64,000 nt of DNA from Promethearchaeota archaeon (GTDB taxonomy: Archaea > Asgardarchaeota > Lokiarchaeia > Sigyniarchaeales > SOKP01), in contig JAEOSU010000038.1 of assembly GCA_016840165.1 (NCBI GenBank), positions 25,816-89,815 of the forward strand. The letters run 5' to 3'. The notes under the pieces are model-generated. The model ran no database searches, was not told where the DNA came from, and was given only the letters and a program-made list of their open reading frames with translations. Below, one piece after another: positions 47,791 through 52,404 of this stretch. Positions within the stretch are counted from its first letter, which is position 1, and the number at the start of each line of letters is the position of its first letter. A program made the position numbers and the translations under genes.

Positions 47791-48906
47791 TTACAATAAA
47801 CCTTCAGGTACTCCGTCCTTGAAATATTGTGCTCTAGTTATCCAGTTTTTGGAAAATTCGGGGATCATTGCTAATATGGAACCACCAACCCATACTGAGA
47901 AAACTCTTTCCCGAGGAGCGATTATTTTAATCGTTTGACTCTTTTTTTTTCTTTTTGCTAATCCCACTTCCAATTCCTGATAGATTCGGGATTTGATGTT
48001 TTGAAACATAGAAGATCCTCCTGATAGAAATATATTATTTAATAGATCGGGTCTAATATCAAGATCACACATTTCAATTACGTCTAATATTGCTTCTGGC
48101 AGCGAAATCTCTTCTAATTCTGGAGTTGGATTAAACAATAATTCAGGTACTTGAAACCTTTCCTTGCCAAGCGTGATAGTGGAGCCATCGGGAAGTGAAT
48201 ATGGTTTTTCATATTGTTCAACCCTTTTTAGATCCTCTTTATAATCGAGAGAAACAAAACATGCTTTTTCTTTTAATGCCCTTACTAATTCTCGACGTAT
48301 CGAGGAATCGGCTGAGTAACCGGTTTCCCCTAAGATCTTTTCCATATAACGAGTAAGGGTTCTGCCCCCGGTTTCTAAATATTTAATTGCATGATCCAAT
48401 TTATACCCTTCATAAATAGGAACAATTCTGGTAATACTATCTCCAATTTCAATAACTAAACCTGTTTGAAATCCTCCAGAATAAAGAGTTAACATTGAAT
48501 CTAATACAGGATAAAACGCCATACACTGATAATGTTCTAAAAATAATTCAAATAATTTCTCTAAATCCTTTCTAGGAAAAAATGGATGCGTGGCAAATAA
48601 AACGTTCACTAGGCTTGGATCAACTCGTAAATTATAAAAGATATAATCAATAATTTTTTCAAAATATCCCCAATCTTGGATAATCCCTTTTTCAATAGGA
48701 TAGAATATTTTATACAATCCTAGTGATTGGATCTCATCTCCAATAAAATATTCGTCCTTTTTAATTCCACCGTAATCAAAATCAATTTGTTGATATTTTG
48801 ATTGACCCACTATTGTAAAAAAGACTAAACTTGGATTGTCTTCCCCTGCAAACCCACATTTGGTTGCAAACTGCCCAATATCTAAGATTACAGTTAGATT
48901 AGCCAT
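47791..48906 (-). CDS. Actin-family protein (divergent Asgard actin-related protein)
   Basis: ILDIG..TKCGFAGEDNP, YPIE.G...DW, VPIYEGY, KEKACFV, YSLPDG, ERFQVPELLFNP, LSGGSSMF, SVWVGGSILA. Confidence 0.96.
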   Translation of the reverse strand: MANLTVILDIGQFATKCGFAGEDNPSLVFFTIVGQSKYQQIDFDYGGIKKDEYFIGDEIQSLGLYKIFYPIEKGIIQDWGYFEKIIDYIFYNLRVDPSLVNVLFATHPFFPRKDLEKLFELFLEHYQCMAFYPVLDSMLTLYSGGFQTGLVIEIGDSITRIVPIYEGYKLDHAIKYLETGGRTLTRYMEKILGETGYSADSSIRRELVRALKEKACFVSLDYKEDLKRVEQYEKPYSLPDGSTITLGKERFQVPELLFNPTPELEEISLPEAILDVIEMCDLDIRPDLLNNIFLSGGSSMFQNIKSRIYQELEVGLAKRKKKSQTIKIIAPRERVFSVWVGGSILAMIPEFSKNWITRAQYFKDGVPEGLL

Positions 48907-48954: not shown

Positions 48955-49701
48955 TTATACTAATAAAATCTTTAGGGGAGTATAGGTTGTTTCTGGGATA
49001 AATGATTCCCCATATGAAGAATCAATTTCGTTACCGCGTAAGATTGCAGTATCTTCTGCCCAATCTAAGACTCTCTCTAATACTTCTTTTTGAGAAGTAT
49101 ACACTTGTGAAAAGATTTCTTTCTTTTTCATCCAATAATGTTCAATATCAACAATTATGAATACTGAGCCTTCAATATATTGAAACTTACATGAAGGTGA
49201 TTCATAATAGTAAACACCATGAGGTTTCCAACTTCGCTCATGGCCTCCATATGCTTTGCCACTGGAACAATGATAGATTGCTTCCCTTGTTATTAAGGAT
49301 AAATTACGATGTACGCGGTGAAAATCAGAAAAATGGGGTATAAGAATGATATTTGGACGCAAATCACGGATCAAATTAGTTATTTGCGAGACCTTATTAC
49401 GTGTTATCTGCAAATCGGTGTAACTCAAACCCACTATCTTACAATTCAAGATTTTTTGGATAGCATCTAATTCAATTTTTCTTTGAGCAAGTATCCGGTC
49501 TTTCTGTTCATTTTTAGCATATCCTCCTAAACCCGATGTTGCTACTACAATGATGATTTCTGAGCCCAACTCTTGGTACTTAAGTAAAGTTCCTCCACAT
49601 GAAATAATCTCATCATCAGGATGCCCTGCAAACACCATAATTCGTTTTGGTACTACAATGGGGATATTTGTATCACAAATGAGATATTGATTTTGCTCCA
49701 T
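48955..49701 (-). CDS. PIG-L family (LmbE/BshB-like) N-deacetylase
   Basis: AGHPDDE, GGTL, DFHRVH, YTSQ, GESF. Confidence 0.92.
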   Translation of the reverse strand: MEQNQYLICDTNIPIVVPKRIMVFAGHPDDEIISCGGTLLKYQELGSEIIIVVATSGLGGYAKNEQKDRILAQRKIELDAIQKILNCKIVGLSYTDLQITRNKVSQITNLIRDLRPNIILIPHFSDFHRVHRNLSLITREAIYHCSSGKAYGGHERSWKPHGVYYYESPSCKFQYIEGSVFIIVDIEHYWMKKKEIFSQVYTSQKEVLERVLDWAEDTAILRGNEIDSSYGESFIPETTYTPLKILLV

Positions 49702-49787: not shown

Positions 49788-50477
49788 TTATTCTCCTCTC
49801 ATAATTTTCTTTAAACGATTAAGTTCTTCTAACATTTCGTCTCGTAAAGAGCTTAATCCTCCTCCAGGTTTAGGTGCTGCCATTGGAGCAGTTGCAGTTG
49901 CAACAGGGGCACCAGGTGGTCTTGGAGTAGCTCCTGCGGGGGGAGCTGCCGGAGGTCCGGGACGTTTAGCAAATGTAGGTGCTTTTACAATACCAGAACT
50001 CGGTGCTTGAGGAGGGGCCGAACCTGGTGCGGGAGGAAGTTTTGGAGCAGGAGGAAGGCCTCCTCTTTTGGGAGGACCGCTACTGGGTGCTTTGGGAGGA
50101 CCACTACTAGCAGGAACCTTAGGAGGTCCAGCAGTAGGTGGTTTAGGTAAGCTAGATGCGGAGGAAGCTGCAGGGGTAGCTGCCGCTGGAGTACCTGTGG
50201 CTGGACTACCACTCAATAAGTTAAAGAGAGTACTTGCCGCAGCAGTTTTTGCGGTACTAGGTGCTGTTGGTCTCGCTATTTGCTTTGAAGAGGTGCTGAC
50301 CGTGGTGACTTCAGGTTCTACAGCGACTTCTTTCAAATCTTTCATTGCTTTATTCAAAGATTTAATAAAATCATTTATTCCCTTAACTGTATCTTCAAGA
50401 TCATCGGATAATGAAGTTAATCCTTTTTTCATAAAATTAATGACGCGTTCTAGTTTTTTTTGTTCTTTAGAAACCAA
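49788..50477 (-). CDS. Coiled-coil + proline-rich protein with C-terminal amphipathic helix (WH2/VASP-like)
   Basis: N-terminal heptads; GPPK x3, LPPAP x2; C-terminus GGGLSSLRDEMLEELNRLKKI. Confidence 0.75.
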   Translation of the reverse strand: MVSKEQKKLERVINFMKKGLTSLSDDLEDTVKGINDFIKSLNKAMKDLKEVAVEPEVTTVSTSSKQIARPTAPSTAKTAAASTLFNLLSGSPATGTPAAATPAASSASSLPKPPTAGPPKVPASSGPPKAPSSGPPKRGGLPPAPKLPPAPGSAPPQAPSSGIVKAPTFAKRPGPPAAPPAGATPRPPGAPVATATAPMAAPKPGGGLSSLRDEMLEELNRLKKIMRGE

Positions 50478-50749
50478 TATTTACTCAAATCCTCTCGTTT
50501 TTTCAATAGTAGAATAATTAATATATATTTATAGTGATAATTCTATTATATTAATTTTTATTTTTATTTTTATATTTTTATTAAATTTTTCTATAGACCG
50601 TCCCTAAAAAATTAATTTTCAAATTTCAGCGAAATCTGAAAAAAATAAGTATTAAAAATGCGAAATCTAATAATATTATAAATAGTTATATACTATATTT
50701 CATTTGATAATTTTAATAATAATCCTTTAATATTAATAGGTGGTTTGTT

Positions 50750-51016
50750 ATTCCTAAGCGTGAACTCTTCATTAAAAGAGTCTATGAAATAGTAAATGAG
50801 CTTAAAATACCCTTAATCGATGAGCGAGTGTATGATAAGGTTGGTTTTAGTACTGGCGCTGCTATCGCTAAGGTTACTTTTAAATTCGAAGAAGATGAAA
50901 GTGTAATTCGAGGATTTCTTGGCCTTGCGGAATATTTCCATACAGTTGTTATTAAAAAAGGCGACCAGTTCTTTATTCCTCATGCATCTATTCTCTTTCA
51001 GCTGGTAAGTTCATAA
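50750..51016 (+). CDS. Small hypothetical protein (~88 aa); probable ATT start
   Basis: Frame open upstream of GTG 50828 (IPKRELFIKRVYEIVNELKIPLIDERV...); SD AGGTGG at 50738-50743. Confidence 0.6.
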   Translation: MPKRELFIKRVYEIVNELKIPLIDERVYDKVGFSTGAAIAKVTFKFEEDESVIRGFLGLAEYFHTVVIKKGDQFFIPHASILFQLVSS

Positions 51017-51183: not shown

Positions 51184-52404
51184 ATGAGAGATAAAAAATT
51201 AGACCTCTTAACCAAGTTTTTAGATGCATCACAAGTCATTAATATAAAAAAATTAAAGCTGGATGATATTGCCAACTTACCGACCTCAAGCTTTAAGTTT
51301 TTGACAGATGCAGATGCTGCGCTTTTCCAAGAATTATTAAACATCTCAACGATACGTCAATTTGCAGACCTTGACCCAGAGGAACCATTCTCAATCTTAT
51401 ATGAGGATAAAGCTACCAAACGAAAAATTGAACATATTCTCCAAACCGACCTTGAAATTGAGGAAAAGTTGCAAAAAGCGGTAACAATATCTTGTATAAT
51501 TAAGCGGATTCAAGAGGAATCAGAATCCTATGTATCTAAGGAACAAAAAATTGTCGTTACTGGGTTGGCAAATGCTGGAAAAACTACCATTTTACGTAAA
51601 TTTGGTGGTCAAATTGGAATTAAAGATTTAGCGAAACTCGCACCCACAAAAGGAGTACAACGAAAAGAGATAGTCACCCCAGATATGGCGCTAATTTTAT
51701 GGGATTTTGGAGGTCAAGAAGAATACAGAAATGTCTACTTGAGTAATCCTGAAAAATATTTCCTCAAGGTAGATCTAGTGATTTATGTCATTGATCTACA
51801 GGATCCTAAGAACTATGAAAAAAGTATCACCTATTTTAAACAGATCCTTGAAGTTTTCGAAAAATTAGAGGAAAGTCCTTACATCTTAATTTTTATCCAC
51901 AAATTTGATCCTGACGTAAAAGATGACCCTGAAATATTGCTTAACGTCGAATTGATAAAAGATATGATTAAAAATATGTTCCAAGAAACAAATAAGCTCG
52001 AATATGAAATTTATATGAGTTCTATATACTCTGCTATTGCTAGTGAACCAAAATTTTCCAGGTATTTAAAAAATACAATGGCACAAACAGGAGTATTAAC
52101 TGAGGGAAAACTGGAAGGGATGGCAACGGTTTTAGAAAGCACCCTAAACGGAATAATTCGATTATCAGAAAGTGTTATGGGTCAATATAATGAACTGGAC
52201 AGTAGAATAAGATCTCTTGAACGAAAAGTTCCTATTGACAAAGCAGAATTAAAACCTCCAATAAAAACAGAGGAAATCCCTTCCCAAACGCCTAGTCAGC
52301 ACTCTGAGGAAACCATAAGAGAAAGTCGGCATGTAAAATCCGCAATACTGGAAGAATTGAATGAACTTTTTGATAAAACCAAAAGACGTCAAAGTTCAAA
52401 ATAG
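51184..52404 (+). CDS. Rag/Arf-like small GTPase with N-terminal HhH-like domain and C-terminal coiled coil/helix
   Basis: G1 GLANAGKTT, G2 PTKG, G3 WDFGGQ, Rag-type G4 IHKFD and G5 SSIY. Confidence 0.85.
   Translation: MRDKKLDLLTKFLDASQVINIKKLKLDDIANLPTSSFKFLTDADAALFQELLNISTIRQFADLDPEEPFSILYEDKATKRKIEHILQTDLEIEEKLQKAVTISCIIKRIQEESESYVSKEQKIVVTGLANAGKTTILRKFGGQIGIKDLAKLAPTKGVQRKEIVTPDMALILWDFGGQEEYRNVYLSNPEKYFLKVDLVIYVIDLQDPKNYEKSITYFKQILEVFEKLEESPYILIFIHKFDPDVKDDPEILLNVELIKDMIKNMFQETNKLEYEIYMSSIYSAIASEPKFSRYLKNTMAQTGVLTEGKLEGMATVLESTLNGIIRLSESVMGQYNELDSRIRSLERKVPIDKAELKPPIKTEEIPSQTPSQHSEETIRESRHVKSAILEELNELFDKTKRRQSSK

Follow-up and report, generated by a model that had tools for sequence, protein, structure and literature searches.

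Actin, profilin and gelsolin are present in Asgard archaea. WAVE and MIM/ABBA proteins are ordered as a helical head, a Pro-rich region and a C-terminal WH2 motif, and in Ena/VASP proteins this order is reversed. The LKK[TV] signature of WH2 is not rigid, and its known variation covers LKKI, LKKV, LKSV and LRHV. The FAB segment of VASP reads GGGGLMEEMNAMLARRRK. A second type of C-terminal helix, MIM1, has the consensus (D/E)xxLxxRLxxL(K/R) and is carried on proteins of the Snf7 fold. Vps4 is, as far as is known, general among Asgard archaea.

Machinery for filament nucleation or elongation has not been found in Asgard archaea (PMC9433394). In the main text of a co-immunoprecipitation study of Lokiactin from L. 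ossiferum, actin, an Arf GTPase, a profilin and five gelsolin-homology proteins are given, and the family described below is not named there (10.1101/2025.11.30.690169). Arcadin-2 consists of a core and a conserved C-terminal helix, joined by an unconserved linker, and the helix binds a groove of actin (PMC5173319). In Asgard ESCRT-III proteins, MIM1-like Leu-rich and MIM2-like Pro-rich motifs have been reported (PMC7240154).

The window analyzed here is a stretch of 64,000 nucleotides of a Promethearchaeota archaeon (contig JAEOSU010000038.1). It encodes a 229-aa protein, P0001, in an open frame of 229 codons (Table 1). The TTG start is considered right because residues 2-17 (MVSKEQKKIERVINFMK) are kept among the homologues in a 30-sequence alignment; the internal Met16 is called as the start in only 3 of these 30. 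An earlier note, made from the sequence alone, had described P0001 as a coiled coil of about 50 aa followed by a Pro-rich middle and a WH2-like terminal helix. The architecture of coiled coil, Pro-rich region and terminal helix is confirmed by the sequence, by an AlphaFold2 monomer model built from the 30-sequence alignment and by more than 200 homologues. In the model, residues 4-50 form a helix (pLDDT >90), residues 208-226 form another (pLDDT ~90), and the part between them is disordered, with a short weak helix at 84-88. The claimed coiled coil agrees with the heptad pattern of residues 4-50, where 77% of the a/d positions are L, I, V, M or F in the best register; the remaining registers reach at most 38% hydrophobic a/d, except the neighbouring a/d-shifted register (69%). 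The invariant surface residues of this head helix include K18, G19, S22, D25, T30, K39, S40, K43, K46 and D47.

All other elements read in the earlier note are present: three GPPK and two LPPAP units in the middle, the island STLFNLLSG and the terminal sequence GGGLSSLRDEMLEELNRLKKIMRGE. Pro makes up 31% of the 113-aa tether, Ala 23% and Gly 11%; there are 11 Lys and Arg residues and no Asp or Glu. Its coding sequence has a GC content of 0.58, compared with 0.33-0.36 at the ends of the gene and about 0.30 in the window. The longest run of prolines is 2, and no run in the relatives exceeds 4. A PTAP sequence at residues 70-73 was considered as a late-domain motif and rejected, as it is not conserved in the 30-sequence alignment.

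Table 1. Features around the P0001 gene, in nucleotide positions of the window
Feature	Coordinates	Strand	Residues or position	Basis or remark
P0001 gene	49788..50477	(-)		
N-terminal heptad helix	50328..50468	(-)	residues 4-50	alignment, AlphaFold2, heptad count
Conserved island AKTAAASTLFNLLSG	50208..50252	(-)	residues 76-90	alignment
Pro/Ala/Gly-rich disordered tether, basic, acid-free	49863..50201	(-)	residues 93-205	alignment, AlphaFold2, composition
Linear motif LPPAPKLPP	50031..50057	(-)	residues 141-149	alignment
Motif P[ST]FAKRP	49959..49979	(-)	residues 167-173	alignment
GGG hinge and C-terminal amphipathic helix	49791..49865	(-)	residues 205-229, helix 208-226	
AT-rich divergent intergenic region, P0001 gene/S88	50478..50749	none		
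S88, unannotated 88-aa gene	50750..51016	(+)	divergent from the P0001 gene, 272 bp apart	best-conserved neighbour of the family
PIG-L family gene	48955..49701	(-)	between the P0001 gene and ARP	in many, not all, relatives
Divergent actin paralogue (ARP)	47791..48906	(-)	downstream of the P0001 gene, co-oriented	Pfam Actin, 1e-88

A word-seeded search found 213 homologues of 200-247 aa. The 120 listed share 52-71% identity with P0001; each is a hypothetical protein from a Loki-type (Promethearchaeota) MAG. When 1.84 billion representatives were searched exhaustively with an HMM of the head (residues 1-92), only 24 clusters were returned, all of the same architecture. Among 400 Asgard genomes, the family was found in 117 of 134 and 14 of 14 genomes of the two nearest families and in the rest of the class; its presence is weaker in other classes, and it is missing from many Asgard lineages. 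Head, Pro-rich tether and tail were all retained in the distant loci that were read out. No description of the family was found in literature searches. By these searches the family is strongly conserved, Asgard-restricted and undescribed.

The alignment of 30 sequences contains invariant islands: the head helix, TVSTSSK, AKTAAASTLFxLLSG, LPPAPKLPP (invariant except for P143), P[ST]FAKRP and GGGL[SG]SLRDEMLEELNRLKKIMRG[ED]. These islands, and the recurrence of the whole in more than 200 homologues, argue that the architecture is not due to chance. The tether varies in length and in its number of GPPK units among homologues, the STLFNLLSG island reads SLFDFLEG or DLWSVLMG in distant orthologues, and one divergent relative keeps LPPKPKLPP without the rest of the tether. 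In a metagenomic protein of 549 aa, P0125, an N-terminal transmembrane segment is followed by the whole architecture and then by a C-terminal extension of TIR-like appearance; P0125 may be a real fusion or an artefact of gene calling.

The gene most constantly associated with this family is S88. Its apparent start is an ATT at 50750, six bases after the ribosome-binding site AGGTGG. No ATG, GTG or TTG lies where the homologues start, and the ATT is the sole candidate. Because the only plausible start is ATT, the gene is hidden from the ORF listing of the window, which shows just a 62-aa fragment beginning at a GTG. A relative with 98% identity begins MVIIPKRE. All 502 members of the S88 family are hypothetical, and the 120 listed are mostly 88 aa long and share 73-98% identity with the window copy. 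KIPLIDE, E50, I53, F56, L57, A60 and Y62 are near-invariant across classes. In the families that have the P0001 family, S88 was found in 122 of 134, 13 of 14, 16 of 19, 6 of 6, 3 of 3 and 4 of 4 genomes, and among the 400 genomes none was found in the large Asgard families that are without it. As far as these genome searches reach, the phyletic ranges of S88 and of the P0001 head match. S88 was not found in three genomes of family f9, which are 94-97% complete.

S88 lies within 3 kb of the P0001 gene in 72 of 80 named relatives, and in 71 of these 72 the two genes point away from each other across a median gap of 272 bp. Among the 8 relatives without S88 at this distance, 5 are at contig ends. 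Adjacency extends to families f1, f5, f7, f19, f21, f26 and f27, which belong to several Asgard classes, and the orientations found are divergent, co-directional and convergent. The pair is co-directional in one genus of the window's own family; in other families it is co-directional the opposite way, convergent, or separated by one gene. In the three complete genomes of the sister family f3 that were checked, the P0001 orthologue is 25-260 kb from S88. The Pro-rich gene has moved away there, and S88 is still found 8-19 kb from the ARP orthologue. An adjacency that survives rearrangement across classes provides the strongest functional link in this analysis.

The structure model of S88 (pLDDT 92, pTM 0.84) has the order alpha-beta-beta-alpha-beta-beta-beta. 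No Pfam family and no PDB sequence was matched. Comparison of the fold with the PDB by Foldseek (best E 0.26) and with 48,161 chains by VIA-align (best Z 4.4) gave nothing convincing, and the ESM Atlas gave nothing usable, either by shape or by features. The C-terminal half bears a loose likeness to the beta-alpha-beta-beta-beta module of glyoxalase type (Z 3-4). S88 is thus predicted to be a compact alpha/beta protein, apparently a new small fold.

The actin paralogue in the window is distinct from the two Lokiactins of the same genome. The order P0001 gene, optional PIG-L gene, ARP, small ORF and topoisomerase I recurs in 4 other MAGs, and ARP is downstream in 56 of 80 named relatives. In 8 distant loci, no ARP was found within 6 kb. 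ARP orthologues (50-95% identity) are found only in the two nearest families, f1 and f3; outside these, the best match of ARP is Lokiactin, at 46-47%. Only in f1 is the ARP gene linked to the P0001 family. Because the whole f1 block is syntenic, through topoisomerase I and a PAS kinase, and ARP orthologues occur in two families only, the adjacency of ARP and the P0001 gene may be largely inherited. The ARP link is thus lineage-specific and may largely reflect descent.

A GTPase gene of Gtr1/RagA/Arf-like type (51184-52404, (+) strand) lies 168 bp downstream of S88, an adjacency found in 1 of 80 relatives. Its product has an N-terminal extension of 115 aa and a Pro/Ser-rich C-terminal tail ending AILEELNELFDK. 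A docking tail common to P0001 and this GTPase was considered and rejected: the GTPase tail, at -3.6 bits, does not match the helix profile of the family, and the genes are adjacent in that single relative.

Conservation of the terminal helix in orthologues was borne out by the 30-sequence alignment and by an alignment of 19 tails of the family from all lineages. Across Asgard classes the core of the tail is [LI][RK]x[EKA]Mxx[EA][LI]xx[LI][KR]x[IVLM][MFLI]. Met215 is invariant in the 19 tails, and L219 (L/I) and K223 (K/R) are nearly so. The earlier note had also leaned on the LKK residues. LKK is constant within the Loki-type families, and LKKI is invariant in the 30 close orthologues, whereas in distant ones the second K is free, with K, S, H, E, R or T in its place (the variants are LKSV, LRHV, LKKV, IKEI, LKRL, LKTL, LKKM and LKSI); the L/I and the first K/R persist there. 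On a helical wheel, L211, M215, L219, L222 and I225/M226 form a hydrophobic stripe, flanked by E214 and E218 on one side and by R212 and K223 on the other. D213, E217, N220, R221 and K224 form a variable face opposite this conserved stripe. Such a stripe, with charged flanks and a variable opposite face, is what marks a peptide bound in the groove of a protein. The helix contains 5 acidic and 5 basic residues, with a net charge of 0.

The tail is not confined to the P0001 family. In f9, a membrane-anchored coiled-coil protein with a Pro-rich region (L030:5983-6789(-), G004:C1) ends in the same helix (ADLRREMMDELNRLKRLIGRAEA). The helix thus appears to be portable, since this transmembrane protein carries it and no S88 was found in that lineage. 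In the genome of P0001, the only other significant match of the tail profile (E 1e-5) is a Cys-rich, zinc-ribbon-like protein of 153 aa (G000:C5:31669-32130(-)), in which the matching segment, LLKHEMLAELNRLKEVI, is internal. A small membrane protein that looks MscL-like (G000:C67:7251-7625(-)) starts with MAKEDEMLAELKKIRELLTPVPPPPKEKPK, where a similar helix and Pro-rich linker are N-terminal (weak, E 0.5). No protein of 402-2000 aa was matched by the tail profile at E<=10, which is weak evidence.

The best explanation of these observations is that P0001 is an Asgard-restricted adaptor of head, tether and tail that would work with the S88 product as a two-gene module. We consider such an adaptor, with the tail helix docking into a groove of its partner, to be somewhat probable. 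The head helix would oligomerise, dock onto S88, or both. Invariant residues on every face are more than a simple homo-oligomeric coiled coil would require. Because the head has them, and because the ranges of head and S88 coincide, S88 may be the protein that binds the head. The tether would provide flexible reach, and the tail helix would be a docking peptide whose hydrophobic stripe inserts into the groove of a partner. Since the tail occurs without S88 in the f9 lineage, a third and more widespread protein would be its partner, and S88 is probably not the protein that receives it. The likeliest class of partner would be the barbed-end hydrophobic cleft of an actin-fold protein, either Lokiactin or the neighbouring paralogue. 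The precedent of arcadin-2 and the neighbourhood of ARP make an actin-fold protein the leading candidate, by analogy, although this assignment is tentative and less likely than not. MIT domains and S88 itself are live alternatives. Several observations speak against the adaptor as described: ARP orthologues are limited to f1 and f3 while the P0001 family and S88 range more widely, the ARP adjacency in f1 may be largely inherited, the 8 distant loci have no ARP within 6 kb, in f3 the pair is split, and the Lokiactin co-immunoprecipitation study does not name the family in its main text.

The order of parts and the tail had been read in the earlier note as WH2-like. Taken fully, P0001 would be a true actin assembly factor of WH2, Ena/VASP or WAVE type. 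Several copies would be clustered by the coiled coil, profilin-actin would be recruited by the Pro-rich tract, and the tail helix with LKKI would hand monomers to filament ends or switch on the neighbouring ARP; we consider this unlikely. No nucleation machinery is yet known from Asgard archaea (PMC9433394), and ARP lies downstream of the P0001 gene in f1, points that favour such a factor. Moreover, the order of parts resembles that of WAVE, MIM/ABBA and, reversed, Ena/VASP; LKKI and the LKKV, LKSV and LRHV of distant orthologues fall within WH2 variation; and GGGL..LRDEMLEELNRLKK is by eye like the FAB segment of VASP. The profile searches, however, did not uphold a WH2 identity. Pfam gave no WH2 (PF02205) in P0001 at E<=1, neither WH2 nor VASP in 30 members at E<=10, and no VASP, EVH1, VASP_tetra or Snf7 match in P0001 or these members, and at E<=10 the tail profile hit no WH2, thymosin or VASP chain and no other chain of relevance in the PDB sequence set, whose size limit lies above the 17 residues of the arcadin-2 peptide. 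In the AlphaFold2 monomer, in which helix may be over-predicted, helix 208-226 is unbroken through LKKIM, without a helix-breaking linker. The earlier note was correct that the linker from helix to LKKI is shorter than in canonical WH2; the spacing is three residues less, and the fourth residue is I, L or M more often than V or T. No acidic-Trp tail is found in any aligned orthologue, P0001 itself ending ...LKKIMRGE. The short proline runs and the lineage restriction of ARP also weigh against this assembly factor.

A MIM1-like spacing of the tail had been noticed as well. The tail helix would then be a ligand, possibly with LPPAPKLPP as a MIM2-like element, for the MIT domain of Vps4 or of another MIT protein, linking P0001 to membrane remodelling of ESCRT type; this, too, appears improbable. 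M215-x3-L219-x2-L222-K223, at the extreme C-terminus, does fit the hydrophobic pattern of MIM1, and a Vps4 with a MIT domain is encoded in the same genome. The two ESCRT-III proteins of this genome end KVKELEEELNKLKSRD and KLEDEIEKLRKELES; in each, a Leu-rich terminal helix comes after a Pro-containing element, in an arrangement like that of P0001, and both have Glu/Asp at the position of the MIM1 Arg. Motifs of both kinds, MIM1-like and MIM2-like, are those reported for Asgard ESCRT-III (PMC7240154). On the other side, where MIM1 has Arg the family carries Glu/Ala, invariantly or nearly so, P0001 has no Snf7 core, and the family tail profile reaches at most 2.7 bits with ESCRT-III tails (domain E >=28 in a space of 4018 proteins), which is not significant. 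The pattern [LMIV]xEEL[NK]x[LI] occurs 14 times in 4018 ORFs and is common in this K/E/L/N-rich proteome. The P0001 family is also missing from many Asgard lineages, whereas Vps4, which was searched for here in this one genome, is as far as is known general. Thus, of the MIM1 claim, the hydrophobic pattern stands and the similarity to ESCRT-III does not reach significance. At G000:C30:146251-148304, the gene for Vps4 (MIT and AAA) and an ESCRT-III gene are divergent neighbours. Without a Pfam match to WH2 or Snf7 or a PDB match of the tail, with an unbroken helix and with a non-significant ESCRT-III tail score, the WH2/VASP and MIM1 readings remain resemblances as far as the sequences indicate.

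The tail helix might instead bind S88 or fold back on the head. The complex would then be closed and self-contained, as in an autoinhibited scaffold or a condensate former. S88 is the only neighbour conserved across classes, and its core motifs and the tail helix are both near-invariant across these classes; however, the f9 transmembrane coiled-coil protein has the same tail, while S88 was not found in the three f9 genomes, and no sign of head-tail packing is seen in the monomer model (pTM 0.22, weak evidence). We regard a closed complex as quite unlikely. P0001 would be a membrane tether if its tail helix targeted membranes in the manner of the amphipathic helices of FtsA or MinD. Tethers of this kind classically carry a C-terminal amphipathic helix behind a flexible, basic linker, and P0001 is laid out in this way. 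Membrane-targeting helices, however, conserve physicochemical character rather than residue identity, and the tail helix has no net charge and near-invariant residue identities, including E214 and E218, which makes a membrane tether very improbable indeed. Non-significant PDB matches to the Pro-rich region of tau (E 4.5-7.9) raised a microtubule-associated role, which was rejected on its phyletic pattern, since only 8 of the 400 Asgard genomes have Tubulin_C and the 134 in the family of the window have none. The carriers of Tubulin_C are one complete genome of 6.0 Mb, one other, and six of 1.3-2.0 Mb.

New in the current work are the cross-class pairing with S88 and the fold model of S88, the restriction of ARP orthologues, the cross-class tail motif and the negative WH2 and MIM1 profile tests. 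Few strongly conserved Asgard-only proteins have the build of a cytoskeletal adaptor; the P0001 family is one of them, and in one family its gene lies beside that of a divergent actin. With S88 as its pair, what was a vague resemblance becomes a defined module of two proteins, which can be directly expressed and tested. In its boldest form, the module would be an Asgard-specific, pre-eukaryotic factor for actin assembly or tethering, with an oligomeric head capped by S88, several basic tethers, and tails at the barbed-end cleft of Lokiactin or its paralogue. We offer this only as speculation and think it rather unlikely; if it is true, the module is an analogue, and possibly a forerunner, of machinery of the WH2/VASP type, and fills the nucleation or elongation gap in Asgard archaea. 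If the partner is not actin, a widely conserved and unstudied Asgard complex is still to be explained.

Comparison with known systems places the P0001 family near three of them. With the Asgard ESCRT-III proteins (Vps2/24/46 and Vps20/32/60; PMC7240154) it shares a Leu-rich amphipathic helix at the extreme C-terminus, with a spacing of 3-7-10 followed by Lys and a Pro-containing motif ahead; by eye, the tail is also like the ESCRT-III tail ELEEELNKLK of the same genome. It differs from them by the missing Snf7 core, the Glu in place of the MIM1 Arg and a similarity that is not statistically significant. With WAVE/SCAR, MIM/ABBA and Ena/VASP it shares a helical, putatively oligomerising head, long Pro-rich disorder and a terminal amphipathic helix followed by L-K-x-hydrophobic, and, as in the VASP FAB segment, a GGG hinge lies ahead of the helix. 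In contrast to Ena/VASP, P0001 has no EVH1 or tetramerisation domain and its coiled coil is N-terminal, not C-terminal. In contrast to WASP/WAVE, it has no C/A region and no VCA end with an acidic stretch and Trp. In contrast to WH2 proteins in general, it has no profile match, its helix is continuous through LKKI, the spacing is shorter, and long polyproline runs are absent.

Arcadin-2, the regulator of crenactin in Pyrobaculum (PDB 5LY3; PMC5173319), differs from P0001 in that its binding relies on a Trp, whereas the helix of P0001 has none. Moreover, the linker of P0001 is Pro-rich and basic with fixed motifs, and its conserved gene partner is S88, not actin. The likeness lies in the plan of the protein: both are archaeal, with a folded or helical body, an unstructured, unconserved linker and a short conserved C-terminal alpha-helix, and an actin-family gene is nearby, for the P0001 family in f1 only. 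By this analogy an actin-regulating role of the P0001 family is plausible. In arcadin-2, the C-terminal helix alone binds the hydrophobic groove of actin (PMC5173319).
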